The translations under genes and the position numbers were made by a program. A stretch of DNA of 64,000 nucleotides. Source: a virus (lineage: Duplodnaviria; Heunggongvirae; Uroviricota; Caudoviricetes). Position 1 is the stretch's first letter. The number at the start of each line of letters is the position of its first letter. Below, one piece after another: positions 8,569 through 58,875 of the stretch. The notes below the pieces were generated by a model that worked only from the letters and a program-made list of their open reading frames with translations, was not told the origin of the DNA and ran no database searches. The stretch is taken from positions 8,924 to 72,923 of IMG/VR virus record IMGVR_UViG_3300028832_000119. One strand, given 5' to 3'.

Positions 8569-8587
8569 TAAACATATAAATTTTTCA

Positions 8588-11361: not shown

Positions 11362-11371
11362 CACAAAGAAA

Positions 11372-11574: not shown

Positions 11575-11994
11575 TCAGTTCTCATAATACAATGTCATTA
11601 AATATTCTTCTGTTATTTCTTTAATTCCAGTTTTAGTAGTTGGGTTCCATATATGATTCTTAAAGAGTTCTCTCATTGTAGGACGAGGTTCATCTTTTTT
11701 AATAAAGCATACTCTTCTAGTATCATCTATGTTCGAACGAACTATTACTTTTGTTACATCTTTCATATAATCCTCTAGCTCATTGCTAGGGGATTTTTCT
11801 TTTTTAATAGGATTATCTATAATTTCTATATCATCTATAGATAATTTCATCCTTTTTAATTTCTTCTCCAGATTTGGAGTAGTGATTATTGTTCCTTTAT
11901 ATTTAAATGTTGTTTCCATAGTTGTCCCACTAGGATTCGAACCCAGGCTAAAGGATTTAGAGTCCCCTGTACTGACCATTATACTATAGGACAA
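11575..11994 (-). CDS. hypothetical protein (139 aa)
   Basis: Intact ORF, standard code. Confidence 0.45.
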   Translation of the reverse strand: MSYSIMVSTGDSKSFSLGSNPSGTTMETTFKYKGTIITTPNLEKKLKRMKLSIDDIEIIDNPIKKEKSPSNELEDYMKDVTKVIVRSNIDDTRRVCFIKKDEPRPTMRELFKNHIWNPTTKTGIKEITEEYLMTLYYEN

Positions 11995-12005
11995 TAAAGG
12001 CTGCT

Positions 12006-12371: not shown

Positions 12372-12419
12372 ATCACTACTAATATATTGGTTATTTATAA
12401 AAACAAAATATAAAAAATG

Positions 12420-15480: not shown

Positions 15481-15767
15481 AGAGGACTAACAATCCTCTT
15501 TTTTATTATTAAAACCTAAGCCAACTTTCTAAAGGGTTATGTAACTTTAGAGAGAAGTAATTCGGTGAATGAACCGTAAGTACACTTTTGTGTCCCGTAA
15601 GGTTCTCTCTTCTCTACTAAAACTTAAGCCAAATGTATAAAGGGCTATGTAGCTGTAGGCATACAACCAATAACTTGCTGCTACTATTTTGTAAATGTAT
15701 TGGCATTATATGTGTTATGTGCACAAGTAAAAATATTAATTAACAATTTAAAAAATTTTAAAGCCGT

Positions 15768-25514: not shown

Positions 25515-25914
25515 ATTATAAAGACTGAAGCCGATACCGGGGATGCAGCTGAGGTGAGCATTATGAAGTAGGTATATAACCGACCGAAGCCAGTCTTTTA
25601 ATTAATAAAGAAAGAAGATTCGTAGAAGGGAATCCAGGAGTGTGGTTCGATGCGTGGTTACTAGTGAAGGCACTCTAATCCTAAAGATAAATCCACGTGA
25701 ATCCCTTCCTTTCTTTTAAAAAAAATTTATCTAACGCCTTATAGGCTAAGTCTATAAGTTTTATAATTATCCGAGGCTAAACAAATCGCCAGTATTAAAG
25801 AAACAAAGAAGGTAGTAGATAAGTTAAATGGTGTGGTGGAGGTACTAATAATTCGATCGTAAAAAGTACCGGGTAGGATAATTATCTTTTTACTTACAAA
25901 CAAAATAAATTAAA

Positions 25915-28995: not shown

Positions 28996-29109
28996 GGCGG
29001 AGTAGTTAAACGGAAAATGAGTATCTGTTTAGTTACTTACAATATCGTATTTATTAACGCAAATTTGTCACATTTGAAAATAGGGGTTCGACTCCCCTCT
29101 CCGCCGCCA
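28996..29109 (+). tRNA. tRNA-Asp-like (GTC) with ~40-nt insertion in the D-loop; CCA encoded
   Basis: GGCGGAG...CTCCGCC-G-CCA acceptor, D-stem GTTA/TAAC enclosing AACGG + insertion (contains TTACTTACAA), canonical CAAAT-TTGTCAC-ATTTG anticodon arm, AGGGG-TTCGACT-CCCCT T-arm. Confidence 0.45.
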
Positions 29110-29457: not shown

Positions 29458-29581
29458 GCCCAGGTAACTTAGTAATAAATTTTTTAGTAGCTAAAGTTAC
29501 TTACAATATCATAATTAAATTTTCGGTAAAAGTATTTGTCTGTTAAACAAAGTATCGCTGGTTCGAGTCCAGCCCTGGGCG
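29458..29581 (+). tRNA. tRNA-Asn (GTT) with ~45-nt D-loop insertion carrying AGTAGCTAAAGTTACTTACAA
   Basis: GCCCAGG/CCTGGGC acceptor, D-stem ACTT/AAGT around the insertion, TTTGT-CTGTTAA-ACAAA anticodon arm, GCTGG-TTCGAGT-CCAGC T-arm. Confidence 0.45.
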
Positions 29582-30002: not shown

Positions 30003-30079
30003 GAAGGGTTCGTCCAGTGGTAAGACTGCAGTTATGGTTATGTCAGCTGTAGAACAGGGGTTCGATTCCTCTACCCTTC
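30003..30079 (+). tRNA. tRNA-like gene with enlarged (15-nt) anticodon-region loop; isotype undetermined
   Basis: GAAGGGT/ACCCTTC acceptor, GGGG-TTCGATT-CCTCT T-arm, TGCAG...CTGTA stem around TTATGGTTATGTCAG. Confidence 0.3.
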
Positions 30080-30186
30080 TCAATTATCTATGGAACTTGA
30101 CGAAATAGGGGTCGCGCAGGAAGCAGCTTATAAATCATGACCCGCTGCTAAGATCAATAAAGTAGATAATTTGTCCGACGGGACAG

Positions 30187-30251
30187 TGTCAATAGCTTAG
30201 TGGAAAGAGCTCCTGCAAAGGACGACGGTGGTTCGAATCCATCTTGACACA
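30187..30251 (+). tRNA. tRNA-like gene (clear acceptor/D/T arms, irregular anticodon arm)
   Basis: GTGTCAA/TTGACAC acceptor, GCTT-AGTGGAAA-GAGC D-arm, GGTGG-TTCGAAT-CCATC T-arm. Confidence 0.3.
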
Positions 30252-30955: not shown

Positions 30956-30971
30956 ATAACAAACAAACATT

Positions 30972-33044: not shown

Positions 33045-33195
33045 ACTTCTTTTCTGTGAATAAAAATAGGATACTTACAATAATATATGCATTACATTGA
33101 TAGTTCGAATCTATCTTTTGGCTCCATGCCTAAATCGCTCAATGGTAGAGCATCAAATTTGTAATTTGACGTAAATTATTAGTATCCTTTTATGT

Positions 33196-33302
33196 GAGGT
33201 CTTAGTTTTTAAGGGGTAGAATGGCTATGCTGTGGTAAAGAGCTTCGGGTTAGAAAGTGTTCCCATATCATAGAAGGTGTTGGTTCAAATCCAACAGACC
33301 TC
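33196..33302 (+). tRNA. tRNA-like gene (~107 nt) with internal insertion; isotype undetermined
   Basis: GAGGTCT/AGACCTC acceptor 107 nt apart, GTTGG-TTCAAAT-CCAAC T-arm. Confidence 0.3.
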
Positions 33303-33379: not shown

Positions 33380-33386
33380 AAATCTC

Positions 33387-33465
33387 TCTATGGGCAAATT
33401 GGTAAAGTCGTTTGGTTCAAACCCAAAAGTTGTGTAGGTTCGAATCCTACTAGGGAGACTATAAG
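33387..33465 (+). tRNA. tRNA-like gene; anticodon-position hairpin TTTGG-TTCAAAC-CCAAA (CAA, Leu-like?)
   Basis: TCTCTAT/TAGGGAGA ends, GTAGG-TTCGAAT-CCTAC T-arm, D-arm irregular. Confidence 0.3.
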
Positions 33466-36727: not shown

Positions 36728-37393
36728 CCTATCTTTAATGCATAGATATAAAACAGCATTAGTGGTACTATTCCTTCTCAAAGTTAATAGCGTAAGTTAA
36801 TGTCTTTTACGATAGTAAAGCATCGATTTTCTCCTTAAAGTTAGAAAGTGAGACGTTTGGTTTTGTTAGTTTTACAGCGTGAAGTAAAAACTAATAGGAT
36901 TATCGGAACGATAGGTCGCTCCTATGGGTAGATAATTAACAATAATGGAGTTTGGCAGATTCCATTATTAATTGGGCCTTACAGGATTAGACGGCTGTTG
37001 AAGGTAATAAGAACAAGCAAAGACGGATGGAAAGACATCAAATAATTAAATGGCAATAAAGCTAAAACTGTAACCATCGGTAGCAGAAGCTTCCGTATGG
37101 CTGCCTAAGTTGGTAACTTACTTAGTCGTCAGAAAGTTACAATAATAGAAATTATTAAACTTAAGTCATTAAACAAGGGAGCCTTGGTCCTTCTAATTGA
37201 CTGATTAGTAAATTATAGGCTGGTGGAACTGATGACTATCCAGTCATCCCCTTGGAGAAGAATAACTCCTTAAAAAATTGAAAAGCTTGTATAATTCTTA
37301 TAGAATAAGCAGTTCGGACGAGGTTTCGACTACCTCAAGGTCCACTTTATTACGTTATTTATTAACGAGATACTTTACAAAATCATATTTTAT

Positions 37394-43818: not shown

Positions 43819-44049
43819 ATGAGAATAATAGAAAATCCAAATCCACTTGATGAAGAAATTATTGTATGCTCAGAATGTAAATGTAAATATGCATACAATA
43901 AAAATGATATTCATACAAAAAGTGGTAATAATGGAATATTAGGTCCAGGATTTATGAGTTGGTGTGATAGATGGGTTAATTGCCCTAATTGTGGAAAAAG
44001 ATATACAATTAAAAGTGATTACGGATTCGGATGTGAGAACTTGTATTGA
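43819..44049 (+). CDS. zinc-ribbon protein (76 aa)
   Basis: CSECKC...CPNCG motifs. Confidence 0.45.
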   Translation: MRIIENPNPLDEEIIVCSECKCKYAYNKNDIHTKSGNNGILGPGFMSWCDRWVNCPNCGKRYTIKSDYGFGCENLY

Positions 44050-44373
44050 TAAATCCTGGGAAGCTGGAAGGCAATCAATGCTTGATGATATTTGTAAATG
44101 TCTAGAAAATAATATTCCAGTTATTATCAAACAACTTAAAGAAAATCTCAATAATACATTTATTGTTGAGCAATCTGATTATTCTAAAGATAAAGAAATA
44201 ATTGAGGGTATTATTGAATATCTTGAATGCTGGAATGACTTCGATTCTGGAGATGAACCTTTTGAAGAATATTGTGCAAGATTCGAAAGATATATTAAGT
44301 TTATGAAAGAACTTTTAAATAGATTATATTCAAATGGAAAATAATGAATATTTAATTATTATTATAAATAATT

Positions 44374-45099
44374 ATGAAAGATTTTGAAAAAATTCCTGCA
44401 GAATGTTGTTATTATGTAAGAAGTAATCCTGGATTTCAATTTCTTGAAGGAAATAGAGATCCTATTAATCCCCATATAAGAGAAATTGCAAGGGCATTAA
44501 AGAAACATGAACATATTCCTGCTATTATGGTAGCAAGATATGAAGGGGAACTTTATATTGTAGATGGACAACATCGGTATCTTGCAGCATGTTCTTTATG
44601 GGATGAGGGTGAACCATATAAACTTCTTGTAGAAGAATATGATTCAGTTAATCCTTTTATGGATGCCATTAAATTCAATAACACAGCAATGGATTGGGAT
44701 ATGTCTACTTATCTAAGAGCTTTTGCTGCATGGAATTATCCTAATTTTAGAGAATTTTTAGAATGGATTAGTTCTAAAGAATGGAATCGTGATAAACTTC
44801 CATATACTTTAGGATTGGCTATGTTAGGGGTTAGAGGAAGAGATAAAATTAAACAAGGAGTACTTCAATTAGGTTCTTCTTTTAGAGAAGGGGATCGTCT
44901 TTATAATGAAATTAAAAACAGTTCTTGTTTTAATATTGTTCTCACAAATGAAGCCTCTGTAAAAGCTTTCTATAGGTTATATAATGGAAGTACTATAGGA
45001 CTCCATAGATTTATTGAAAGTTTTGAGGATAGAGAACATATCTATCCTCCAACAACTTCTAAAATTAAGGATTGGGTAGAATTTTTTGAAACTGTCTAA
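44374..45099 (+). CDS. ParB-like nuclease / DUF262-family protein (DGQHR motif)
   Basis: YIVDGQHRYLAA matches the ParB N-terminal/DUF262 signature. 241 aa. Confidence 0.5.
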   Translation: MKDFEKIPAECCYYVRSNPGFQFLEGNRDPINPHIREIARALKKHEHIPAIMVARYEGELYIVDGQHRYLAACSLWDEGEPYKLLVEEYDSVNPFMDAIKFNNTAMDWDMSTYLRAFAAWNYPNFREFLEWISSKEWNRDKLPYTLGLAMLGVRGRDKIKQGVLQLGSSFREGDRLYNEIKNSSCFNIVLTNEASVKAFYRLYNGSTIGLHRFIESFEDREHIYPPTTSKIKDWVEFFETV

Positions 45100-45107
45100 T
45101 ATTAGAT

Positions 45108-45278
45108 CAGGTTGTGTCCGACCAACCTTCTGAGGCGGTACGATTGGGTCAGCCGAAGCTAAGTTATCAGTAAACCGATCGGTGATTGGGGCAACCCTTA
45201 ACAAAATTGGGAAGAGTCAAAGGCATGACTGGAAATTATGCACAAGATTTGAGTGAGAGACTACCTCTCACTTATTTT
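45108..45278 (+). ncRNA. GC-rich structured noncoding segment ending in a rho-independent terminator
   Basis: ~55% GC island (aggttgtgtccgaccaacct hairpin etc.) in an AT-rich genome. Terminator gtgagagactacctctcac + TTATTTTT at 45252-45278. Confidence 0.3.
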
Positions 45279-45654
45279 TAAAACTTAATAATATGAAACT
45301 AAGAGTATTAAAAAAGAAGCATCCATCTAAATTAGAAAGGATATGGATTGAACACTATTTAGTATGGAAATCCTTAAAATGGTTAAATGAGGATTATCAA
45401 TCAATAAGACTTTATTATATGGAGTCTTGTAAAAAACATATTGGACTATGATAATAGATTTTAGTAAATATGATTGCTTTATAGCAGAATGTTATGAAGC
45501 AGAAGATGAATTTTGGAAAGGAATTTATGAAGATATTGAGTCTGATTATTGGATAAATGAAAATAAAAATAATTTTTGATTTTTTAACAACTATTAATAG
45601 TATTAACTGTTAATAGTAGATAGTTCAATTTTTTAACGTTAAAAATCAAAATTT

Positions 45655-47979
45655 ATGAATAAATTAGTTTCTAAAAACCCTATTTAGAGGTTTAAAGAGG
45701 GTAGAAAAATTGAAAAGTTTGAAACCGGAGGTTTTACATATAATGGAAAACATTATGTTGGTGGAGGAACTAAAATTGTTAATTGGCTAAAAAAATAGAT
45801 GATGCCGTTTGGAGCAATTCCTGTAAAATAGCAATCTTAGAAAACAAAAAGAACTGTTTATCCTTTATATAATTCAACTACTGGAGAAACAACTTATTAT
45901 AATTCTTTAGAAGAAAGGGAAGCTGCTAAACAAAATATAATTAATTCAAAAAATAATATTACAATAAATAATTCTGGAGTAATTCCTGGAGTTAATGATA
46001 TTGATACTCAAATGAGAATTAATCAATTACCTTCTGCAAAATTAAAAAAGCCTCTTAAGACTCAAGAATAGTGGAATACAGAGTTTCAAAATAACTTTAT
46101 TAATAATTTAACCCAGGATTAGAGATAGTATTTAGATTCTCAAGGAGTTAATTTTAATGATGTTAAAGCGGTACAAAAATTTATAGGTACCAATGATGAT
46201 GGAAAATGGGGAAGAAATTCTATAAATGCTTGGAATAAATTTATTTCTACAATTCCTTAGAACTTTTCTTAGACAAGAGAAGAACAATCTATGATGCAAG
46301 GAACAACTCCATATGTAGAAACCCCAATAACTCCTACTAAATATACTACAAATAATACTTATATGGATAAAACTCAATTTAGAGACAATATCAGAGGATT
46401 GGGTATTTAGAGTAATGCAGATTTAATTAATTGGATGCATTAGACTGGAGCTGAAGGATATGATTTTGGAGGAAATCAATGGGCTAAACAATTTAGAAAC
46501 GACGTTGATAGAGTTCTTGGAGGAGACTATTCTGATGCTAATATTAGAAAAACATTTAATACTGCTGGAAATTGGGGTAGAGGTTTTTTAGGTGGAGGAG
46601 ATTTAAGTGATTTCCAAAATGCAATGGCAACTAATGCTGGAGTATGGAATGGAATAGCTGATGCTGGAAAGTAGCCTACAATTCAATTTGATCGCTCAGC
46701 TACAAGAGAATGGTTAAGAAATAATGCTGGAGGCTCAGCATATGCATTTACTGGTGATTAGAGAAAAGCAGTAAGAAATATATTAAATGGCTAGGGAACA
46801 GACCAAGATAAAGAATTAATTAAAGGAAATGCTGATTTAGTAAAAGCATTAACAGGTTATTTTAAAACAGGAGGAAATATGATATTACCATCAAGAAATA
46901 TTGTTGAAAGATTTAAACAAGGAAAGAAAATAGAATATTTTTAGAATGGAGGAGTAAAAAGATTTAAAGTAAGTTATAAAACTAGAACTGGAGGAGATTG
47001 GCTTGAAAAATAGTTTAATACTTAGGAAGAAGTAAATGCTTTTAGAAAAAGACTTAGCCATGTTCCAGTTTTTAAAGTTGATGATATGAAAGGAGCTTCT
47101 AGGGGTTCTGTAGTAAAAGCTGATAGAACTAAAGGAAAAGATGCTGCTACAACTGCCTATGATAGATAGGAAGCTGAAAAAAATAACATGATGTCTTTTA
47201 AACAAGCTTATTCTCAAGCTAGAAAATCTGGAAATAAATATTTTGCTTATAAAGGAAAAGTATATAAATCTGATTTAGAAAATGGAAAAGATAATATGAC
47301 TGAAATGCAATAGCTTTATGGAACTCATTTAGGTTATTCATCCAATCCAAAATTACAAAATAAACAATCAAGAACAGCTAGAGAATAGTATAGAAAAGAT
47401 ACTAAAGCTACTAATACTAATAGAAATGCTAATTTCAAGGGAGAAACAAATTCTCAAGCAAATGCTAGGGCTGACAAAAATTTTGATAGAAAATTGGGAG
47501 TAAGTACATTAGCTCCAGATTTTATTGATGCAGTATCTCCTCAAACAGCTATTGGGAACTTTATGAATATGGCAGGCTCTGCTATAACCGGAGAACATTT
47601 TACTCCAAAAATTTATTAGAATGGATTTAATATCCCAGGATATGCTTCAGATTTAACTTAGAGTAAATATAAAGATTTAGCATTTAGAGGATTAGACGCT
47701 TATTTATCTTTGGGAGCTCCTGGTGCTAGAGTAAATATGACTCCTGGAGGTACTAATGTAACTGAAGGTGCTACAATATTACCTAATGGAACAAGAGAAT
47801 TTTCTAAATGGCATTTAAGATCTTTAGGACCTAATGCTACTAGACCTATGGAAGGAGTATTAAGAAGTTCTAGAGGCACTACTTATTATATTGATAATGG
47901 ACAATTTATGAAAAATTTAACTATTCCAGCATTAGTATCTAATCCAATTATTCAATAGATATAGAATTTAGAAAAATAA
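45655..47979 (+). CDS. large TAG-recoded protein (~775 aa, ~30 in-frame TAG) with a peptidoglycan-binding domain; probable virion/tail-associated protein
   Basis: ATG 45655 after an in-frame TAA. Single frame to TAA 47977-47979 with only TAG interruptions (e.g. caa TAG ctt tat gga at 47311). PG_binding_1-like motif VKAVQKFIGTNDDGKWGRNSINAWNKF. The TAA overlaps the next ATG (TAATG). Confidence 0.5.
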
Positions 47980-48206
47980 TGAAATATATTAAAGGAATAA
48001 TCTTATTCTTAACATTATTTATTTGTTGCAGTTGTTCCGATTTACAAGTAACAAATCCTGAGTATAGAATTCATTATACTTATGTAACAACTGTAGATTA
48101 TCATTATAATAGAAGATATATTCCTTATAGACATCATCGATTTCACGATGTTCCAAGGTATAGAACTCACTTGGAACATCGTGAATATCGATTTAACAAA
48201 TATTAA
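47979..48206 (+). CDS. His/Tyr/Arg-rich secreted or lipo-protein (75 aa)
   Basis: Signal-peptide-like MKYIKGIILFLTLFICCSCS. Confidence 0.4.
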   Translation: MKYIKGIILFLTLFICCSCSDLQVTNPEYRIHYTYVTTVDYHYNRRYIPYRHHRFHDVPRYRTHLEHREYRFNKY

Positions 48207-48390
48207 CTTTTGAATTTTAAAATTCATTAGTAAATTTATAATCCAATTTCAGTTGGAGATAATTGTTTTAATTTTAAAAATTTATGCTTATGAAACGTAT
48301 ATGAACACGTAACAAAGGTCCAGATTACAATCATTAATTAAAGAGTTTTTAGTAGATAGTTAAAAATAAATTAATTAAAATGATTGTATT

Positions 48391-48663
48391 ATGAAACCTA
48401 ATGTATTAAAATTTAAAGACGATATTAAAATTCAAGTAGCTCAACAAAAAGAGAAAGATTATTGTGATTGGTGGATGCATCCTGCATATTGTGCTTATTA
48501 CATTTTAAAACATGGAATAACAGACTTTGATAAATGTATTGAAGAAGATGTTAAACGTTCTTATAAAGCATTACCCGATGAATGGAGTAAAGATCACTTT
48601 AGAGAAAAAGTAATGAAATATCTTGCACAATATGAAGAACAACCTGTATGTACTGATAAGTAA
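48391..48663 (+). CDS. hypothetical protein (90 aa)
   Basis: ORF. Confidence 0.45.
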   Translation: MKPNVLKFKDDIKIQVAQQKEKDYCDWWMHPAYCAYYILKHGITDFDKCIEEDVKRSYKALPDEWSKDHFREKVMKYLAQYEEQPVCTDK

Positions 48664-48973
48664 TAAATTAGATCCAATTTATGGTGCAGTACAGGGAGGT
48701 CATGCAGTTGCTGAATGGTTATTAGTAAATGCTAATCTTAATAGAGAAAGTATAAAATGGGATTGGACTAATGACTATCTAATCTATCTGTCTGTAGATG
48801 TTGAACAATGGAAAAAAGATTTATGGAGATTTTCTCCTAATAAATATCAATGGACTTGGTTTGATGAACCAGATTTAAACAACCAAACCACTGCTATTGC
48901 AATTTATGAAAAAGATTTTCCCGGATTTATTCGTCGAAAATTAAAACAAGAAAAACTACTAACTGGGTTGTAA
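48623..48973 (+). CDS. hypothetical protein (116 aa; start uncertain)
   Basis: ORF overlapping the previous one. Confidence 0.35.
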   Translation: MHNMKNNLYVLISNKLDPIYGAVQGGHAVAEWLLVNANLNRESIKWDWTNDYLIYLSVDVEQWKKDLWRFSPNKYQWTWFDEPDLNNQTTAIAIYEKDFPGFIRRKLKQEKLLTGL

Positions 48974-48990
48974 TATACCCAGTTTTTTAA

Positions 48991-49063
48991 GCTCGTATAG
49001 TTCAATTGGCAGAACGGTGGTCCTCAAAACCAAATGTTGAGAGTTCGATCCTCTCTATGAGCA
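48991..49063 (+). tRNA. tRNA-Trp-like with apparent UCA anticodon (candidate opal/UGA-reading suppressor); C at position 33
   Basis: GCTCGTA/TATGAGC acceptor, GTTC-AATTGGCA-GAAC D-arm, TGGT-CCTCAAA-ACCA anticodon stem-loop (anticodon TCA at 49024-49026), ATGTT variable loop, GAGAG-TTCGATC-CTCTC T-arm. The body closely parallels the CCA-anticodon tRNA-Trp at 51545 and E. coli tRNA-Trp, except loop CCTCAAA versus CTCCAAA. Confidence 0.4.
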
Positions 49064-49171
49064 CTAAATAATAAATTGTTAATTTTTATTAAATTCATAA
49101 GTTTGAGTTTGAATTTTCAAACTTAAAAATATATTTATAGTACGAAGATTAAAACCCCTTCGTCTATTAAT

Positions 49172-49759
49172 ATGTCAAAATGGGAATCTGAAAAAGAAGA
49201 ATTAGAAAGACTTATAAATGTAGAAAAAGTTAGTTATGAAGAAATAGGTAGAAGATATGGTTGTTCTGGAACTAATATTAAAAAAGTTGCAAAACAATTA
49301 GGAATAGAACTTCCCCAACGTAGAAAAATAAACCCTTGTGAAACTTTTGATAGAAGTTCTAGAAAAATAATATATTATTGTTTAAATTGTGGAAAAGAAT
49401 TAAATCAAGGTTCTAGTAGTTCTCATAGATTTTGTGATAGTAAATGTCATAATGAATATAAATATAAAGAATTTATAGAAAAATGGAAAAATGGAGAAGA
49501 AAATGGAATTAGAGGAGCTTCTGCAATTTCTATGTATATAAAAAGATATTTATTTAAAAAATTTCATAATAGATGTCAAAAATGTGGTTGGGGAGAGGAA
49601 AATCCCTATTCTCATACTATCCCTTTAGAAATTCATCATATTGATGGAGATTGTACTAACAATAAAGAAGAAAATCTTCAATTGCTTTGTCCAAATTGCC
49701 ATTCATTAACTGATAATTTTAGGTCTTTAAATAAAAATACTACTAGATTTAGATATTAA
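49172..49759 (+). CDS. HNH endonuclease (standard code) inside the tRNA array
   Basis: EIHHIDGDCTNNKEENLQLLCPNCHS HNH motif. Zinc-finger Cys pairs. Confidence 0.6.
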   Translation: MSKWESEKEELERLINVEKVSYEEIGRRYGCSGTNIKKVAKQLGIELPQRRKINPCETFDRSSRKIIYYCLNCGKELNQGSSSSHRFCDSKCHNEYKYKEFIEKWKNGEENGIRGASAISMYIKRYLFKKFHNRCQKCGWGEENPYSHTIPLEIHHIDGDCTNNKEENLQLLCPNCHSLTDNFRSLNKNTTRFRY

Positions 49760-49958
49760 AATATTATAATCCTTTTCGGGTAAGGTAAAGCAGAACCTGT
49801 GAGTTTGCCGACTGGTAAGTGAATCAAAGCCTGGGGTAAGAAGCACCTATTGCTTTAGTATAGGTAAACCTTCTAAGAGACGACGCTACCCACAAATATT
49901 TTTTAGCGGTTAGTCTAAAGAAAATCTGCAAAGCTAGGTAAAGGAAGTCCTAGCAAAT

Positions 49959-50032
49959 TCTGATGTAGCATAGTTGGTTAATGCACTTGACTGATAATCA
50001 AGAGATCTCTGGTTCAAGTCCAGACGTCAGAA
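49959..50032 (+). tRNA. tRNA-Ile (GAT)
   Basis: TCTGATG/CGTCAGA acceptor, GCAT-AGTTGGTTA-ATGC D-arm, CTTGA-CTGATAA-TCAAG anticodon arm, TCTGG-TTCAAGT-CCAGA T-arm. Confidence 0.55.
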
Positions 50033-50035
50033 CTA

Positions 50036-50110
50036 TAGTGGCGAAGCTTAACTGGTATAAGCACCAGCCTTATAAGCTGGAGATAGTGGGTTCAACTCCC
50101 ACGGCCACCA
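50036..50110 (+). tRNA. tRNA-like gene with anticodon TAT (Ile-AUA-type?), acceptor imperfect
   Basis: GCTT-AACTGGTAT-AAGC D-arm, CCAGC-CTTATAA-GCTGG anticodon arm, GTGGG-TTCAACT-CCCAC T-arm. Confidence 0.35.
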
Positions 50111-50198
50111 CATATCTCGGTATGGGTGAAAGATTAAGCCAACAGTCTGCAAAACTGTGTGTGGAAGTTTGAGTCTTCCTACCGAGTCAATTTTATTT

Positions 50199-50272
50199 AG
50201 GGGAGTGGCCTAATGGGTTAAGGCTCTTGGTTTGGGACCAAGTGATTGTCGGTTCGAGTCCGGTCTTCCCTA
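50199..50272 (+). tRNA. tRNA-Pro (TGG)
   Basis: AGGGGAG/CTTCCCT acceptor, GCCT-AATGGGTTA-AGGC D-arm, CTTGG-TTTGGGA-CCAAG anticodon arm, TTCGAGT T-loop. Confidence 0.5.
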
Positions 50273-50310
50273 CTAATAGTAGATAGTTCTTTTAACTTAA
50301 TTAATGTAAA

Positions 50311-50499
50311 ATGAAAAAAATTTTAGTATTTTTGATGACTGTGATGATGTTTGTAGCTTGTAATGGCTGTCACCAATCACAACAAGAAAGTTTAGGAGCA
50401 ACTGACTCTACTGAAATTGTAGTTAAGGACTCAGTCATTGACACAATTGATGTAGACCATACAATTGCTACAGATAGACAGACAATGCACATGAACTAA
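50311..50499 (+). CDS. small lipoprotein-like protein (62 aa)
   Basis: MKKILVFLMTVMMFVACNGC has a lipobox-like signal peptide. Confidence 0.4.
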   Translation: MKKILVFLMTVMMFVACNGCHQSQQESLGATDSTEIVVKDSVIDTIDVDHTIATDRQTMHMN

Positions 50500-50620
50500 T
50501 CATGCATTTCCAGAGGAAAAGGAATTCAAAATGCCTCTAGGAGAGTGGCCCTAAGAAAAATTGATTTGATAGAACCTTGAATACAATAGTATTCATTCTG
50601 TGAATAAAAATTAAAATTAC

Positions 50621-50646
50621 GGAGCTACGAGTTAGCTCCTTTTTAT
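50621..50646 (+). terminator. rho-independent terminator
   Basis: ggagctacgagttagctcc + TTTTTAT. Confidence 0.45.
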
Positions 50647-50718
50647 TCCCCATTAGTATAAAGGTTATTACACTCGATTTGTAATCCTGTGATGGCCGTT
50701 CGATTCGACCATGGGGAT
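50647..50718 (+). tRNA. tRNA-like gene (TGT-type loop TTTGTAA) with degenerate anticodon stem
   Basis: TCCCCAT/ATGGGGA acceptor (7 bp), TTCGATT T-loop, weak anticodon stem. Confidence 0.3.
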
Positions 50719-50983
50719 CCATTTGGCTATATAGTAGTTGCAAATGCTATATAGACGTAAGGCTCTTAGTTACGGCTAGGAGGGGAATCGTAAGTCCACT
50801 ATCTTGTACGACGGGAGATAGTCTGTAGTTCAGTAAAAACTTCATTAATGCCGAGGAGTACACAAATACGAGCTGTCGTGTTTTCAGTAAAACTGAATAT
50901 CCGTACTAATCAATCAGGAGAAAGGTGGTAGATTAATGAGTATTTTAGCAAGGTTTAGCACTGTACCTTAAACAGTGCAAATT

Positions 50984-51072
50984 GGGAAGACTGCAATGAT
51001 GGTGGTATTGCGCAGCACTGTAAATGCTGTCCTGTATGGTAAACAACGGGAGTTCGAATCTCTCTCTTCCCA
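50984..51072 (+). tRNA. tRNA-Tyr (GTA), type II
   Basis: GGGAAGA/TCTTCCC acceptor, CAGCA-CTGTAAA-TGCTG anticodon arm, long variable arm, GGGAG-TTCGAAT-CTCTC T-arm. Confidence 0.5.
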
Positions 51073-51321
51073 CTATAGCAACTGCCTTAGATACGAGGGT
51101 ACCAGTCTAAGGTCATAAGAACTAGTAAGCAGGCATAGATGATTTAGGTTCTTTTTAATTAGTATAAAAATCGTTAGACAATAAGAACCGAGAGCGGCGG
51201 AGTGGTTAAACGGCAATAGCGTTAAGGTGAAATTCCTTTGGATAAGATGCCTCTGCTTAAGACCACATTCAAGATTAAAACGTTAAATCAGCGCGGTGTC
51301 ATAATTTATACTAATTAATAT

Positions 51322-51394
51322 TGGGTAGTGGCAGAGGTGGTCAATGCGGAGGTCTGAAAAACCTTAGATATTCGTTCAATTCGAATCTATCCAA
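51322..51394 (+). tRNA. tRNA-Phe (GAA)
   Basis: TGGGTAG/CTATCCA acceptor, GAGGT-CTGAAAA-ACCTT anticodon arm, ATTCG-TTCAATT-CGAAT T-arm. Confidence 0.4.
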
Positions 51395-51544
51395 CTATAA
51401 TTACACTGGTCAACGGACTGAACACTGCAGAGAGCAACTTTTCGTAAGTCTCATAAAAAGATGCCTCAATGGCGGATAAGCGAGTTATCGTAGGTAGAAG
51501 TAAGGTATAGGAAAGCTATACACGATGGAAGGTGTAATTATTAT

Positions 51545-51616
51545 GCAGACTTAGTTCAGGGGTAGAACGTTGCTCTCCAAAAGCAAATGTCGGGGGTTCA
51601 AATCCTTCAGTCTGTG
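51545..51616 (+). tRNA. tRNA-Trp (CCA)
   Basis: GCAGACT/AGTCTGT acceptor, GTTC-AGGGGTA-GAAC D-arm, TTGCT-CTCCAAA-AGCAA anticodon arm, TTCAAAT T-loop. Confidence 0.55.
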
Positions 51617-51621
51617 CAAAT

Positions 51622-51694
51622 GCCCTGGTAGTTCAATGGATTAGAATACATCACTACGGATGATATGATGAGGGTTCGATTCCTTCTCGGGGTA
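51622..51694 (+). tRNA. tRNA-Arg (ACG)
   Basis: GTTC-AATGGATTA-GAAT D-arm, CATCA-CTACGGA-TGATA anticodon arm, GAGGG-TTCGATT-CCTTC T-arm. Acceptor has several G-U pairs. Confidence 0.45.
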
Positions 51695-51829
51695 CAAAGT
51701 CAACACATTTCTTTATTAGTTTCTAATGTAAAAACGAAACTGATTGATACTCTACTATTCAATGACATAGGACAGGAAGTTGTTGATACCTGTTAAAAAA
51801 GGAAATCCTATTGAGAATAGTAGAAAAAT

Positions 51830-51916
51830 AGTGGTATGGCTGAGTGGCCGAAAGCACTTGTCTTGAAAACAAGAGAACGGTAACACGTTCCGTGGGTTCG
51901 AATCCTACTGCCACTA
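51830..51916 (+). tRNA. tRNA-Ser (TGA), type II
   Basis: AGTGGTA/TGCCACT acceptor, CTTGT-CTTGAAA-ACAAG anticodon arm, long variable arm, GTGGG-TTCGAAT-CCTAC T-arm. Confidence 0.55.
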
Positions 51917-51918
51917 CT

Positions 51919-52050
51919 ATGAGTACATTTGAATTAAAAGATGGACAGATTGTCTGTAAAAAGTGTGGAAGTAAAAATGTTTCTATCAAAGCTGGAATGA
52001 TGGTTGATAGAGCATGGTGTAGAGAGTGTAATAATGAAGATTATTTATAA
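51919..52050 (+). CDS. small zinc-ribbon protein (43 aa)
   Basis: MSTFELKDGQIVCKKCGS...CRECNNEDYL. Track ORF 51844 starts inside the tRNA. Confidence 0.4.
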   Translation: MSTFELKDGQIVCKKCGSKNVSIKAGMMVDRAWCRECNNEDYL

Positions 52051-52138
52051 AGAGGGTTGCGTGAGTGGTTTAAACGACTGACCTGCTAAGTCAGCAACCG
52101 CCAAAAGTGGTTCATTGGTTCAAATCCAATACCCTCTA
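52051..52138 (+). tRNA. tRNA-Ser (GCT), type II
   Basis: AGAGGGT/ACCCTCT acceptor, CTGAC-CTGCTAA-GTCAG anticodon arm, long variable arm, ATTGG-TTCAAAT-CCAAT T-arm. Confidence 0.55.
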
Positions 52139-52260
52139 CTAAATTTTATGTATTATGAAAGAAAAAATATTTTCTTATGGGAAATTTTATAATGAAGAGG
52201 ATATGATCAATTTTGTTAATAGTAGAGAATCAGTAACTCCTGTTTCTATAATAAAAGAAG

Positions 52261-52548
52261 ATGGAGTATATAAATTGTTTTATTTATGGTAATATGGGAA
52301 AATATTTTGGACAACAATGCCAGAATGATACTTTAAATCAGAAATTTAGAGAACTTCATGGCAGATTAGTAAATGATATTATTTCTTTTTGTAAAGATAA
52401 TAATATTGAAGCCGAAGAAGTAATATTAAAGGTTGATGGATTGAAAGGTTCTATTCCTTATGAAGAATGGCAACCTTGTACTGACTCTTGTTTAGAAATA
52501 TATAAAGAAGATTCTAGATATGAATTACCAATTTTAATATCATTATGA
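52261..52548 (+). CDS. hypothetical protein (95 aa)
   Basis: ORF. Confidence 0.45.
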   Translation: MEYINCFIYGNMGKYFGQQCQNDTLNQKFRELHGRLVNDIISFCKDNNIEAEEVILKVDGLKGSIPYEEWQPCTDSCLEIYKEDSRYELPILISL

Positions 52549-52772
52549 TAATTGCTAAATGTTTAAATAATGTCAATCCTTGGGGAGGAAATAAATACCC
52601 TCTTGAAATAGGAAAAAACTATGAAGTAGAAGATATTGATATGGGACAATCTTATACTACTATTAAATTGGCTGGCATAAAAGAACCCATTAATTCAGTT
52701 TGTTTAGAATTTTTTATTGATGGAGCTCCTATCAATATTTATTCTGATAAACGATTTAATCCTTATTTATAA
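52545..52772 (+). CDS. hypothetical protein (75 aa)
   Basis: ORF with ATGA overlap. Confidence 0.45.
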   Translation: MIIAKCLNNVNPWGGNKYPLEIGKNYEVEDIDMGQSYTTIKLAGIKEPINSVCLEFFIDGAPINIYSDKRFNPYL

Positions 52773-52774
52773 TT

Positions 52775-53053
52775 ATGGAATATACATTAGAAACAAGATT
52801 TGATATCGGAGATTCTGTCTTTGGATTTGTTGATGGAGAAATTCATAATTTGGTTATAGATAGAATAGAAATAAGTTTTGAACGATTTAGTAAAACTGAT
52901 AAATATACTAGATATAAAGTAGTGTATTTGGCTACTACAACAGATTGTGAAAAATTTAATTGTCAACATAGATTTAAAGAAGGAACATTATTTACTAAAG
53001 AAGAATTGAAAAATCATGTTAATGAATATTTTGAAAATAGAGAAAATTCTTAA
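52775..53053 (+). CDS. hypothetical protein (92 aa)
   Basis: ORF. Confidence 0.45.
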   Translation: MEYTLETRFDIGDSVFGFVDGEIHNLVIDRIEISFERFSKTDKYTRYKVVYLATTTDCEKFNCQHRFKEGTLFTKEELKNHVNEYFENRENS

Positions 53054-53486
53054 TCATCAACAGCATTTATATTTTAATTGTAAACGGCCTGAAGATTATG
53101 ATTATGAAGCTGGAAGAAATGCTGGAATAGCACAAATTACTAAAGATTTGTGGAATATTCCAATTCAAACAGAACTAGGAGAGAAATTTCCTTTTACTGG
53201 ATTTGTAGAAATTGATGGAACAATTCATAAATGTAATTCTTGTGAACATGAGGATTTAGTTCGCAGTATTGTTTATGATAATCCAGAATACTTTAAAAAG
53301 TATAGAAATGTTCCTGCAGTATTCTATGACCACAAGCCTCAAGGTATGTTACAAGAGGAATATTTCTTAATGAAATATCTTGGATTTGTTAAAGTATCTT
53401 CTTTTAAAGATGCTCCTACTAAGAAGATATTATTTAGGTATGAGAATTTAACTTGGAAACAATCTGATATAATTTATCCACAATGA
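53016..53486 (+). CDS. hypothetical protein (156 aa)
   Basis: ORF. Confidence 0.45.
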   Translation: MLMNILKIEKILNHQQHLYFNCKRPEDYDYEAGRNAGIAQITKDLWNIPIQTELGEKFPFTGFVEIDGTIHKCNSCEHEDLVRSIVYDNPEYFKKYRNVPAVFYDHKPQGMLQEEYFLMKYLGFVKVSSFKDAPTKKILFRYENLTWKQSDIIYPQ

Positions 53487-53923
53487 AAATAGTTAAGCAA
53501 ATAGATGAGACACATTTTGAAGTAGAAATGGAACCTTGGGATAAAGATAAAGAAATTAAAGTTTCTATAGCTCATGATTATTTAGCTATAGGAGCTCCCA
53601 ATAGTTTCTGTACTTCTATTGATATTAAGGGAGAATACAATAGTGGTCCCATAAATGGGCTTCTTAATTATAATACTCTTCAAATTCCTATTAGAGCTAC
53701 TCAAGAAATATTAAGACTTATTAAAGATTATAAGTATTTAAAACCAGAACATCTTATTTGTAGAGATGGAAAACTAAACTATCTTTGGAATAATTATCCA
53801 ATAAAATTTAAAGATGAAGATGGTGTTTGGAGAGTAGCAGTTAGAGGAGATAATGAAGAAAAGTATTCAATTCTCTCACTTGCTGTTTATAATAAATTAA
53901 CTAAAGGTTTAGAAAATGACTAA
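53483..53923 (+). CDS. hypothetical protein (146 aa)
   Basis: ORF with ATGA overlap. Confidence 0.45.
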   Translation: MKIVKQIDETHFEVEMEPWDKDKEIKVSIAHDYLAIGAPNSFCTSIDIKGEYNSGPINGLLNYNTLQIPIRATQEILRLIKDYKYLKPEHLICRDGKLNYLWNNYPIKFKDEDGVWRVAVRGDNEEKYSILSLAVYNKLTKGLEND

Positions 53924-54128
53924 AGGTGAACTATTAGATTTTCTTACTGCAAGAGCTAAGGAATTTAGAAATGATACTACAGCTATTTGTAGGAATAAGC
54001 ATTTAACAGGAGTTAATGAACAAGAAATGCCTAGAGCTTTTCAAATAGATGGAACATTAGTTGCATTTATTAATTATGTTGGAATGCATCAAGGTATTGA
54101 TTATGCTTTAAGTGTTAAAGATTTATGA
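53916..54128 (+). CDS. hypothetical protein (70 aa)
   Basis: ORF. Confidence 0.4.
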   Translation: MTKGELLDFLTARAKEFRNDTTAICRNKHLTGVNEQEMPRAFQIDGTLVAFINYVGMHQGIDYALSVKDL

Positions 54129-54460
54129 GTTATACAGAAACACATTTTGGTAAATTTAAAGTTCTTGCCAAAGGAGAAGAAAATATTAGACAATATATTA
54201 AAGAACATAATATAGAAACTGATAAGTATGAAGATACTTGGCCTTCTGATACAGATAAATATTGTGTAACATATCCTTATGAAAAGGATGGAGATAAATA
54301 TCTTATAGAATTTATTGAACACGAAGAACTTGATGAAGGAGATGACTTTGAAAAATTTCGACAGAATGAAGATGGTACTATAAGTTTTGGAGTACAATTT
54401 TATAATGGAGGATGTGGTTTATTTGAAGCTCTTGGAGGTTTCTATAAATGTTTAAAATAA
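54125..54460 (+). CDS. acidic hypothetical protein (111 aa)
   Basis: ORF. Confidence 0.45.
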   Translation: MSYTETHFGKFKVLAKGEENIRQYIKEHNIETDKYEDTWPSDTDKYCVTYPYEKDGDKYLIEFIEHEELDEGDDFEKFRQNEDGTISFGVQFYNGGCGLFEALGGFYKCLK

Positions 54461-54469
54461 TTTTAGGTT

Positions 54470-54553
54470 GGGATAGTGGTGGAACTGGTGAGACACGCTA
54501 GTCTTAGGAACTAGTACATTGATACATTGTAGGTTCGAATCCTACCTGTCCTA
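54470..54553 (+). tRNA. tRNA-Leu (TAG), type II
   Basis: GGGATAG/CTGTCCT acceptor, CTAGT-CTTAGGA-ACTAG anticodon arm, long variable region, GTAGG-TTCGAAT-CCTAC T-arm. Confidence 0.45.
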
Positions 54554-54677
54554 CATCAAAAGAGATTTGAGACTCAACGTAACGTCAATAGTCCCTGAAG
54601 AAATTCAAACTATTGCTTCATCGTAAGTGGAAGAAGTTTTTTAGCTCAGTTTTACGGTTATAAAAACTGAGATCTTT

Positions 54678-54755
54678 GCGGGTATGGTGTAGTTGCAGGC
54701 GCACACCTGACTTCCAATCAGGAGGCATGCGTGGGTTGGATCCCCACTATCCGCA
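54678..54755 (+). tRNA. tRNA-Gly (TCC)
   Basis: GCGGGTA/TATCCGC acceptor, CCTGA-CTTCCAA-TCAGG anticodon arm, GTGGG-TTGGATC-CCCAC T-arm. Variable region longer than usual. Confidence 0.45.
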
Positions 54756-54761
54756 CAATTT

Positions 54762-54839
54762 GCAGTGTTAGTGTAGTTGGAGGTGCATATCTGCTTGCCA
54801 TGCAGAAGGCTTACGCTGGTTCGATTCCAGTACACTGCT
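54762..54839 (+). tRNA. tRNA-Gly (GCC)
   Basis: GCAGTGT/ACACTGC acceptor, TCTGC-TTGCCAT-GCAGA anticodon arm, GCTGG-TTCGATT-CCAGT T-arm. Confidence 0.45.
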
Positions 54840-54859
54840 CAATTAAATGTAAATGTGGT

Positions 54860-55585
54860 ATGTATAGAAAATTTAAAGAACTTACAAAGGAAGAATTAAT
54901 ACAAACTATAGAAGAAGTTGAATATCTTGGATAGGTATTAAAAAACTTAGGTTGTGTAGATAATAGTTATAATAGAAACAAGTTAAAAGAATTTATAGAA
55001 TTAAACAATATTTCTACTTCTCATATTAAAACTAAATTAACTAGAGAAACATATGAATAGAATCCAAAACATTGTAAATGTTGTAATAAAGTAATTCCTT
55101 ATGAAAAAAGAGAAAATGATTTTTGTGATCATTCTTGTGCAGCTAGTTATAATAATCGTGGAATATGTAGAAATGGTACTCCACTTCCAGAACATTCATA
55201 TTGCTTAAATTGTGGTAAAGAAATTACCAGAGGAAATAAATTTTGTGATAATACTTGTGCTGCTAAGTATAGAGAAAAACAATATATTGAACGTTGGAAA
55301 AATGGAGAAGAGGATGGATTAAGTGGTAAATATGGAATAATAACTGCAGTTAGAAATTATATATTTGAAAAGAATAATAATGAATGTGAATGTTGTCATA
55401 AAAATTATATAAATCCTTATACTGGTTTATCTATATTACAAATCCATCATATAGATGGTGATTGTACTAATAATTCTGAAGAAAATTTAAAATTATTATG
55501 TCCAAATTGTCATGCAATGACTGAAAATTATGGTTCTTTAAACAAAGGAAAAGCAACTAGAGTAGATAATAGAATGAGATATTAA
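54860..55585 (+). CDS. HNH endonuclease paralog, TAG-recoded (2 in-frame TAG)
   Basis: ATG 54860 (MYRKFKELTKEEL...EYLG-TAG-VLKNLG...RETYE-TAG-NPKHCKCCNK...ILQIHHIDGDCTNNSEENLKLLCPNCHAM...). Same frame to TAA 55583-55585. Homologous to 49172..49759. Confidence 0.5.
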
Positions 55586-55596
55586 ATATCTCTAAT

Positions 55597-55668
55597 GCTT
55601 CTATGGCAGAAGGGATTATGCACCAGACTCTTAATCTGGCTATCAAGGTTCGAGTCCTTGTAGGAGTA
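55597..55668 (+). tRNA. tRNA-Lys (CTT)
   Basis: GCTTCTA/TAGGAGT acceptor, CCAGA-CTCTTAA-TCTGG anticodon arm, CAAGG-TTCGAGT-CCTTG T-arm. Confidence 0.45.
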
Positions 55669-55678
55669 CTAAATCATT

Positions 55679-55748
55679 GGGTTTGTAGCTCGAAGGTCGA
55701 GCAGGTGGCTGTTAACCACTCGGTGGGGGTTCGATTCCCTCCATTCCC
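55679..55748 (+). tRNA. tRNA-Asn-like (GTT), weakly paired acceptor
   Basis: CTCG-AAGGT-CGAG D-arm, GGTGG-CTGTTAA-CCACT anticodon arm, GGGGG-TTCGATT-CCCTC T-arm. Confidence 0.3.
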
Positions 55749-55764
55749 GCCCTTATTTTTTAAT

Positions 55765-55838
55765 GGGACAGTTGGCCGAGAGACTTAGGCACAAGTTTGT
55801 GGCACTTGGATACGTGGGTTTGAATCCCTCACTGCCCC
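55765..55838 (+). tRNA. tRNA-His (GTG) with extra 5' G(-1)
   Basis: G-1 + GGACAGT/ACTGCCC + C73, CAAGT-TTGTGGC-ACTTG anticodon arm, GTGGG-TTTGAAT-CCCTC T-arm. Confidence 0.45.
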
Positions 55839-56116
55839 CAATAACTAAAACTCTTATAAAATAAAGTCATAAATAAATTTTGATTTTTTATCCTTGATTT
55901 ATGATAAGAAAGTATGTGCAGTATTTGATTATTCTAAATTGAGGATATATTTATTTTGTGATTAGATAATTATTTATAAACTTTAAATTTGTAAAGAGTT
56001 ATGAAAAAAGTAAAAAGTGTTTTTAAGAAAATTGGTCAAATTTACATGAATAGTGTAATAGAATATTACAGACCATTGATTGATGCAAAAGTCAATCCTT
56101 TAATTTAATAGTTTTT

Positions 56117-56187
56117 ACACTCATAGCTTAGTGGTAAAGCCTCGGACTTTTAATCCGGTGACCTGGGTCCGATTCCCAGTGGGTGTA
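56117..56187 (+). tRNA. tRNA-Lys (TTT), third copy; T-loop TCCGATT
   Basis: ACACTCA/TGGGTGT acceptor, GCTT-AGTGGTA-AAGC D-arm, TCGGA-CTTTTAA-TCCGG anticodon arm. Confidence 0.45.
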
Positions 56188-56695
56188 CCTCTAAGGAGGA
56201 AATTAATTTAATTAGTATTAGTTATGAAAAATAAATTAAAAATATTTGCAATATGTGCCACAACTATTGCAGCTTCTATATATTCCTTTTATTTAGTAAA
56301 AAGTGGTTATATGCTATGACATTAGATTAGTTAAAACCTATTTTAAGGAATGGAAAATATTATAATTGGGGAATAATTCCAGGATGGATTGGATTTATAA
56401 AATATAATTATTTCTTAGATGAAGTATTTTTTGTAAATGGGGATTATAGATTATGTGAAAAAGAATTAAGAGATAAATTAAAAGATAGAAATGACTTATA
56501 CTATATAATATGATAACATTAAGTGTAATATTAATAATATTAGTAATTATAGGTATTTACGATCCTTATATTGATTGTTTTTACGATTATAGAGGAAAAT
56601 ATCATATTATATTATGGTATAATGATTCTAAAGGACAACGTAAATATATAAATATTATAGGCAATCAAGATAGATGATTGCCTTTTTTTGTGCTT

Positions 56696-58345: not shown

Positions 58346-58718
58346 AGAACAATTAAAGAAAGGGGACTATATTCAATCTAATTCTGGAGTTCCTGCATTT
58401 GTTGATAAAATTCTTCCATCTAGAATAAGAGTATGGATAGGAAATAAAAAAGAATATATTCCAGATGATGAATTACAAAGTTGGTCTTACGGAAATCCTA
58501 TTAAAGATAACCGAATAGTAGGAAGTAAAACTTTCGCTGTCCGATTTAAACACTTCTTAGATTGGATTCCTAAGGAATTTTATATGTTTGGTCCACATAT
58601 ACTTGAAGAATATGAGTATATGCAAATAGTAGCTAATGATCTTCTTAAATATCAGATTCAAACAGCTACAGATGAGGAAGAAATTAACTATTTAAAACGA
58701 CTCAACTTATATGAATGA
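58338..58718 (+). CDS. hypothetical protein (126 aa)
   Basis: ORF. Confidence 0.45.
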   Translation: MNKEQLKKGDYIQSNSGVPAFVDKILPSRIRVWIGNKKEYIPDDELQSWSYGNPIKDNRIVGSKTFAVRFKHFLDWIPKEFYMFGPHILEEYEYMQIVANDLLKYQIQTATDEEEINYLKRLNLYE

Positions 58719-58875
58719 AAAAGACGTCCTTGACGAATTTTTTGTATTAATTGGAAAAATTGCTTTACTTTCTGCTAATTGACCTAATAATTCTGCTTTT
58801 TGGGATGAAATTAGTGAAGATGTTCAGAAAGTATTAGGTAAAGTAACTAAAGATAAAATGATTTATGGTTGGTAA
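58711..58875 (+). CDS. small ORF with one in-frame TGA (candidate opal read-through)
   Basis: ATG 58711 MNEKDVLDEFFVLIGKIALLSAN-TGA(58780)-PNNSAFWDEISEDVQKVLGKVTKDKMIYGW-TAA. The 30 stop-free codons after the TGA have no start codon of their own. Confidence 0.25.

Follow-up and report, generated by a model that had tools for sequence, protein, structure and literature searches.

A putative opal-suppressor tRNA with a tryptophan-like body is maintained in an amber-recoded crAss-like phage that keeps TGA as a stop codon

The window analysed here, a stretch of 64,000 nucleotides of phage DNA with a GC content of 32%, carries on its plus strand, at 48991..49063, a tRNA gene of the opal-suppressor type, hereafter the UCA tRNA. 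ARAGORN called it at 48991-49064(+), with anticodon tca and the label 'SeC', and the Rfam model RF00005 matched 48991-49063 over its full length with 60.3 bits, in the upper range among the tRNAs of the window. The MFE fold is a cloverleaf with stems of 7, 4, 5 and 5 bp and a variable loop of 5 nt. Read directly, the anticodon loop is C32-C33-U34-C35-A36-A37-A38 (CCUCAAA), followed by the discriminator A73. The sequence-only reading had placed at 48991 a tRNA with anticodon UCA and C33, and both the ARAGORN call and the direct reading of the loop bear this out. The label 'SeC' is due to the anticodon alone. A tRNA-Sec has an acceptor and T-stem of 8+5 bp, a 6-bp D-stem and a long variable arm; with its 7/4/5/5-bp stems, its 5-nt variable loop, its length of 73 nt and RF00005 as the best model in the Rfam tRNA clan, the present gene was rejected as a selenocysteine tRNA. 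A shifted anticodon, CAA, with U34 acting as the U-turn base, was set aside as structurally implausible.

The body of this tRNA resembles that of tRNA-Trp. When the 74-nt gene was compared by blastn with annotated phage records, approximately 32 of the 40 matches listed were tRNA-Trp, among them a Salmonella tRNA-Trp and one from a crAss-phage. The D-arm of the tRNA-Trp of crAss cr126_1 is nearly identical to that of the UCA tRNA, but its loop is CUCCAAA (U33, anticodon CCA) and its discriminator G73. The window also encodes a normal tRNA-Trp(CCA), at 51545..51617 on the plus strand, recognised by ARAGORN, by Rfam and from its sequence, with the loop CUCCAAA (U33; CTCCAAA in the DNA) and the discriminator G73. 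Both the Trp likeness and this second, canonical gene had been proposed from the letters alone, and both were recovered. The UCA tRNA differs from tRNA-Trp at three functional positions, C33, U34 and A73. It lacks U33, the U-turn nucleotide, and it lacks G73, which is the discriminator recognised by TrpRS in bacteria. The conflict between A73 and the bacterial Trp discriminator makes the amino acid carried by the UCA tRNA uncertain. Within the window, the tRNA most similar to it (72%) is a predicted tRNA-Leu(CAA) at 33384-33459 (plus strand), which is 76 nt long and devoid of the long variable arm expected of a bacterial tRNA-Leu.

The UCA tRNA heads an array of about 18 tRNAs (49959..56189, plus strand, from ARAGORN and the ORF map) located in a standard-code early/middle region. 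Directly upstream of it in every carrier lies a gene found here at 48623..48973 (plus strand), the product of which has no Pfam or PDB sequence match. Its AlphaFold model (pLDDT 87.9) gave as best Foldseek matches the PTH2 structures 2zv3, 3erj, 1q7s and 1rlk (TM 0.6-0.7), and on these best structural matches the protein is predicted to have a PTH2-type peptidyl-tRNA hydrolase fold. Since its 144 database homologues include some in relatives without the UCA tRNA, it is not a dedicated partner. A terminator-like hairpin, AACTGGGT...ACCCAGTT, followed by a T-run, occupies 48961..48990 on the plus strand and ends flush with the 5′ end of the tRNA; the terminator scan reports this hairpin on the minus strand. 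An equivalent hairpin and T-run abuts the UCA tRNA in all relatives, ending 0-1 nt before its first base. This leaves no room for a promoter, so that the UCA tRNA may arise only by read-through transcription.

On the other side, in the interval that separates the UCA tRNA from the tRNA-Ile cluster, an ORF at 49172..49759 (plus strand) gave both PHROG and Pfam HNH matches. This HNH homing-endonuclease ORF, inserted in the tRNA array, is absent at the same position in relatives, which have instead a conserved non-coding element of ~120-200 nt between the UCA tRNA and tRNA-Ile(GAT). Among the related loci, designated here by L numbers, the element was located in L093 (2344-2464), L132 (10434-10629) and L134 (10412-10592), as well as in L135, L136, L124 and L115. 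Its middle is variable and rich in hairpins, its 5′ end is TAATCCTTTTCGGGTAAGGTTAAGCAGARCCTGC and its 3′ end AAATCTGCAAAGCTAGGTAGAGGAAGTCCTAGC, and no Rfam match was obtained for it at E<=1.

Altogether ARAGORN found 34 tRNAs in the window, to which several extra Rfam tRNA matches and a tmRNA are to be added. The tmRNA, at 36974-37347 (plus strand), matches the full RF00023 model with 67 bits and was missed by ARAGORN. The plus-strand Rfam tRNA matches that ARAGORN did not call are among 28996-29106, 29512-29573, 30003-30081, 30186-30251 and 33128-33196; one Rfam-only match, 111 nt long, possibly contains an intron. The ARAGORN calls include a 'tRNA-???' whose anticodon has 2 nt. Two large plus-strand ORFs, both in standard code and lacking a family assignment, were inspected by eye: the one at 25909-27747 (610 aa) shows a vWA-like DSSGS motif and has no PHROG or Pfam match, and the one at 30960-33044 (694 aa) shows an N-terminal membrane segment followed by a long Ala/Glu/Lys-rich, coiled-coil-like stretch. 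The idea of a release factor or ArfB-like protein was considered for a GGQ-containing ORF at 15762-16331 and dropped, as it had no Pfam match; nor had nine other ORFs.

To place the phage, its large terminase was used as a query and returned 80 related IMG/VR loci, the nearest lying on a 183-kb contig (97% identity) and on one of 179 kb (92%). Against annotated phages (tblastn), the terminase matched Crassvirales with 25-29% identity, and it is 45-48% identical to those of two unannotated human-gut phages. Both the portal and the large terminase were assigned to PHROG families and are crAss-like. They belong to a block of minus-strand genes at 1-13,100, and each of the two contains 13 in-frame TAG codons. 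This recoded late-gene block is headed by an amber suppressor tRNA(CUA), at 11921..11993 on the minus strand (ARAGORN and Rfam). Among plus-strand genes, one (45,643-47,979) has 24 in-frame TAG, and most have none. In relatives, the residues aligned with the TAG sites of terminase and portal are predominantly Q (489 cases, the next residue being N with 175), and at conserved TAG sites only Q or TAG is seen. The presence of tRNA(CUA) together with late-gene TAG aligned with Gln is what characterises the TAG-recoded code 15, and the amber recoding assumed by the sequence-only reading is confirmed. From the terminase relatives, the 183 and 179 kb contigs and the TAG-Gln alignment, the window is part of a crAss-like phage of ~180 kb, from gut or rumen, the late genes of which are read with TAG as Gln. 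Relatives of 179 and 183 kb (class range 145-192 kb), large tRNA blocks and code switching are all features of the Zeta type, and we label the phage provisionally Zeta-type crAss-like from terminase/portal similarity, tRNA blocks and code switching.

We then asked how widely the UCA tRNA is kept. In the 179-kb relative, an orthologue occupies the same site, ahead of an Ile-Ile-Cys tRNA cluster. A pattern scan of metagenomes added about a dozen relatives of the UCA tRNA. Because the loop was fixed in that pattern, loci were also gathered through the protein encoded upstream; in all 8 of these loci, a tRNA of the same type begins ~15 nt after the gene. The members found independently of the loop (n=6) come from L093, by synteny, and from L132-L139, by the upstream protein. 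Other searches were less productive. An exact pattern of the tRNA body with a free anticodon loop had no match in IMG/VR, and a near-identical DNA search with 44000-56500 had none among annotated phages. The recoded 778-aa gene used as a search anchor returned no match either, probably because all but one of the peptide patterns held Q, possibly encoded by TAG. When the body of the UCA tRNA was sought in IMG/VR with U33 in its loop, there was a single match, the acceptor stem of which is broken and which is not recognised as a tRNA.

The family comprises 14 distinct sequences, in which 98% of the pair cells hold standard pairs. Seven pairs are changed on both sides, that is, in a compensatory manner, and none of 500 shuffles reached the observed values. 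The loop CCUCAAA and A73 are invariant in 14 of 14 sequences, including the 6 loop-independent members. Among carriers the upstream protein is 79-86% identical, and the position of the tRNA beside this gene is fixed in all of them. Homologues of the upstream gene of 60-67% identity are followed by no tRNA, and no UCA tRNA was found within 10 kb of those loci; the tRNA was therefore gained within a sub-clade. In several carriers (L132, L134, L137-L139) the T-loop reads TCCGATT, with C55 in place of the usual T54-T55, and three of the copies with this T-loop are missed by ARAGORN.

Such a record is difficult to reconcile with a non-functional pseudogene or a prediction artefact. C33 and A73 are indeed atypical, and the TCCGATT copies that ARAGORN leaves uncalled in some relatives point the same way, but the Rfam score lies in the upper range for the window, the four stems are kept by compensatory changes through 14 variants, and the position is fixed. 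We regard a pseudogene or artefact as exceedingly improbable. Judged from these alignments, the UCA tRNA is a maintained gene under selection, not a decaying copy.

How unusual are its two diverging positions? In elongator tRNAs U33 is conserved, the exceptions being the eukaryotic initiators (C33) and the code-changing tRNA-Ser of Candida (G33) (PMC5041475). Among the relatives of the present phage, U33 is present in 261 of 277 distinct tRNAs, and outside the UCA family C33 is seen in only four that are credible: a Lys-UUU (L085 2749-2823), an Asn-GUU (L094 4842-4913), and a Ser-UGA and a Gly-UCC, both in the same locus (L102 5715-5802 and L102 6133-6211). These four other isotypes suggest that anticodon loops without U33 recur within the group. 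The 10 other tRNA(UCA) genes of phages found among the matches listed had U33 in 8 cases, A33 in one, G33 in one and C33 in none; in a broader phage sample, again among the matches listed, the background of C33 was ~4.6% of tRNAs. Contigs with a U33-type tRNA(UCA) were also compared with the C33 carriers for TGA recoding, a comparison in which the loci fetched were mostly standard-code tRNA regions. Taken together, C33 is unusual, fixed and lineage-specific among the opal suppressors sampled, yet not exotic for phage tRNAs.

Since C33 also occurs in other tRNAs, it could have a more general cause, for instance the evasion of nucleases or a local system of modification, and not a tuning of suppression. 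According to the former proposal, the UCA tRNA would be an extra member of the Trp family, with a loop (C33, U34) resistant to a host anticodon nuclease or to another defence aimed at tRNAs, reading UGG by wobble, with weak UGA reading as a side effect. Mutated anticodon loops in phage tRNAs have been proposed to serve the evasion of host tRNases (PMC10264068). One of the isoacceptors in which C33 recurs, tRNA-Lys(UUU), has as its E. coli counterpart the target of PrrC, and the UCA tRNA sits in a translation-support setting, with the gene of PTH2 fold, the tRNA array and the tmRNA. The phage, however, already has a canonical tRNA-Trp(CCA) with U33, the change from C34 to U34 is unneeded for evading a nuclease and creates a stop-codon reader, and A73 is not the bacterial Trp discriminator. 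Moreover, we know of no cognate nuclease in the hosts. On balance we find this explanation quite unlikely.

Whether TGA is a sense codon in this phage was examined next. TGA ends 22 of the 82 gene models (27%), 13 of the 22 in ATGA overlaps, and the coding score collapses past it; that TGA terminates genes elsewhere, as had been noted at the outset, is thus confirmed. A screen was made for TGA codons with a coding signal in the same frame on both sides and no restart codon, over the 64-kb window of a genome of ~180 kb. It returned exactly one TGA, at 58780, and the TAA controls yielded back-to-back genes only. The 179 open codons that follow another TGA proved to belong to the next gene, which lies in the same frame. 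Applied to 1.72 Mb of relatives, the same screen gave 2 in-frame TGA versus 590 TAG. One of the two TGA sites is that of the window itself; 12 codons downstream of the other there is a restart, so that it probably precedes a separate gene. No in-frame TGA was found in ~150 kb of contigs carrying the UCA tRNA. In carriers, ORF coverage rises strongly with TAG as sense and not with TGA as sense. Backup stops are not enriched after TGA-terminated genes (p=0.27), a result that neither supports nor excludes leaky termination. A TGA-recoded (code 4) genome would have in-frame TGA codons in conserved genes, matched by Trp in relatives, whereas the 64 kb contain a single one, opposite Arg, Asp or Tyr. 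By these counts, TGA is not a sense codon in the phage or in its relatives.

These figures bear on a scenario in which the lineage is an evolutionary intermediate, the UCA tRNA being either a pre-adaptation to TGA reassignment or a relic of a TGA-recoded ancestor, and 58780 the first in-frame TGA to be tolerated. The Zeta group does switch codes at short phylogenetic distances, with TAG, TGA and standard-code branches and a proposed 'suppressor pre-emergence' (PMC7886860), TGA suppressors are found in standard-code relatives of TGA-recoded phages (Borges et al.), and one carrier, ours, has one in-frame TGA. Still, the tRNA has been kept across carriers with compensatory changes and with 79-86% identity of the neighbouring protein, yet no in-frame TGA has accumulated; TGA is a frequent stop (27% of gene models) and not depleted, as would be expected before reassignment; and Babkin et al. 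argue likewise against an 'incipient' status (PMC12386605). An intermediate of this kind is unlikely.

The single TGA lies in a conserved 54-codon gene at 58711..58875 (plus strand), recognised by its coding score and its orthologues. The TGA, at 58780-58782, is the sole one of its kind in the window, and the translation reads MNEKDVLDEFFVLIGKIALLSAN*PNNSAFWDEISEDVQKVLGKVTKDKMIYGW*, with the residues IALLSAN-X-PNNSAFWDEISEDVQK around the TGA site (X). The gene is arranged in operon style: its ATG is overlapped by the stop of the upstream gene (ATGAATGA), as is its TAA by the start of the downstream gene. In their frame, the 30 codons past the TGA reach 0.75 bits/codon, a score higher than that of 89% of true in-frame windows and of all out-of-frame windows. 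This confirms the description in the sequence-only reading of an ORF with a single in-frame TGA followed by 30 open codons, with the precision that the sole ATG in these 30 codons stands 6 codons before the end.

Orthologues of the gene were found in nine related loci. In the nearest one (L089, 81% identity) the reading frame continues without interruption, with CGT (Arg) at the TGA site; in others, more distant, Asp or Tyr occupies it, and in none does Trp or TGA. With Arg, Asp and Tyr at this site, the TGA is best explained by a strain-specific nonsense change, and not by a conserved read-through programme. Two other assemblies share this TGA. Over 7.9 and 1.4 kb their identity to the window is 100%, which rules out a one-off error of assembly and adds no evolutionary depth. 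Past the TGA, comparison with L089 gave a dN/dS of 0.06 (9 synonymous and 5 non-synonymous changes), meaning that translation of the downstream part either continues or ceased recently. This value fits a very recent nonsense mutation and a continued translation by read-through alike, and the nonsense change is possibly rescued by the UCA tRNA.

From the letters alone, the possibility had been raised of a second, selective opal suppression system layered on the amber recoding, that is, a programmed read-through in which the UCA tRNA decodes particular in-frame TGA codons such as 58780. The strong coding signal on both sides of this TGA, the tight overlaps with both neighbours, the lack of a restart, the low dN/dS downstream and the recurrence of the TGA in two assemblies all speak in its favour. 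But a programmed site is recognised by a stop conserved at the same place in orthologues, and here the site is CGT-Arg, Asp or Tyr, the two other assemblies being identical and without added depth. Neither the rest of the window nor the ~150 kb of carriers yields another case, the other TGA in 1.72 Mb probably precedes a separate gene, and the UCA tRNA is much older than the TGA at 58780. The absence of conserved TGA read-through ORFs had itself been named as the observation that would speak against the claim, and, as far as the available sequence allows, none was found. We hold programmed selective read-through to be very unlikely. What stands of the earlier interpretation is a maintained, opal-reading, Trp-derived tRNA and one in-frame TGA in a coding ORF; what finds no support is the existence of programmed targets.

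The reading that we favour, and that we consider probable, is that the UCA tRNA is a functional tRNA on a Trp scaffold, serving as a second, non-recoding suppressor of an amber-recoded phage. It would decode UGA at a low level or under certain conditions, possibly along with UGG through U34 wobble, and its benefit would lie outside genome-wide recoding. Two candidate benefits have already been proposed for the group: read-through directed at the host, impairing its proteins, or a buffer against TGA nonsense mutations. C33 and A73 may weaken the tRNA or change the way in which it is handled, and the 27% of genes that end with TGA would thereby still terminate; this attenuating role is deduced from general tRNA knowledge. 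As for the TGA at 58780, it would be a recent, strain-specific nonsense substitution in a small accessory gene, of which the suppressor may restore some full-length product.

One may go further, and suppose that C33 and A73 are the marks of a purpose-built opal suppressor, attenuated or re-specified (by weak decoding, or by charging with an enzyme other than TrpRS) and kept so as to coexist with TGA stops while it reads through host mRNAs or rescues TGA nonsense mutations. The gene at 58711-58875, interrupted and yet under purifying selection, would on this view represent the beginning of a second stop-codon reassignment, still in progress. This extended version is speculative, and we judge it rather unlikely.

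Why recoded phages keep a suppressor for a stop codon that they have not recoded is an open question in the literature (PMC12386605, PMC7886860). The present lineage offers a clean test case, with a tRNA under selection, TGA still a stop, and three positions (C33, U34 and A73) that can be swapped. If C33 and A73 do damp suppression, this would explain how a potentially self-damaging suppressor can be carried, and would provide synthetic biology with a natural design of a weak opal suppressor. For annotation, the phage should be translated with TAG as Gln and TGA kept as stop.

Compared with known systems, the TGA at 58780 is reminiscent of the A1 coat extension of Qbeta, in that a single UGA is followed by in-frame coding sequence. 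Leaky UGA sites of the A1 type are conserved, give a functional extension and are read by the normal host tRNA-Trp, whereas the TGA described here cuts a gene of 54 codons in its middle part and is found in no orthologue. Regarding position 33, the tRNA-Ser(CAG) of Candida (cited in PMC5041475) is likewise an elongator tRNA tied to an altered codon meaning that departs from U33; it is eukaryotic, acts from sense to sense and has G33 instead of C33, so that it provides an analogy only. Closer are the suppressors of code 4 phages (Ivanova 2014, Yutin 2021, Borges 2022), which share with the UCA tRNA the Trp-like body, the UCA anticodon, A37-A38 and the location in a standard-code region. Those suppressors read TGA as Trp, while in the present phage TGA is not a sense codon, and the UCA tRNA has C33 instead of U33 and A73 instead of the G73 of bacterial tRNA-Trp. 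Related cases are also found in the Mgcod preprint.

The closest parallel is with the Zeta crAss-like phages, which have genomes of 156-189 kb, ~30-37% GC and up to 34 tRNAs (Babkin et al. 2025, PMC12386605). Several of them bear both CTA and TCA suppressors and use one: ctkor1 (187.6 kb, 32 tRNAs, 31.4% GC) is amber-recoded with 'CTA, TCA' tRNAs, and Lera, with both suppressors, has opal recoding. In the same work the isotype of the TCA tRNA was called 'Trp or Arg', and the persistence of 'non-functioning' suppressors was discussed. Already in an earlier survey of the Zeta group the presence of suppressors and recoding were imperfectly matched, a mismatch for which an incipient code change or an impairment of host protein production was proposed (Yutin et al. 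2021, PMC7886860). Our phage and its relatives resemble those of PMC12386605 in their size (179-183 kb), ~32% GC, more than 30 tRNAs in arrays and crAss-like terminase, as well as in having recoded late genes and standard-code early genes, both suppressor anticodons with TAG alone recoded, and a TCA tRNA of ambiguous isotype. They differ from them in the origin of the lineage, rumen-type metagenomes, and in its distance from every annotated record. C33 and A73, both fixed, may be the only undescribed detail, as far as we found. The arrangement with two suppressors and one recoding, real as it is, is largely a known feature, already published for this phage group, and our main finding is thus a further case of a described phenomenon.
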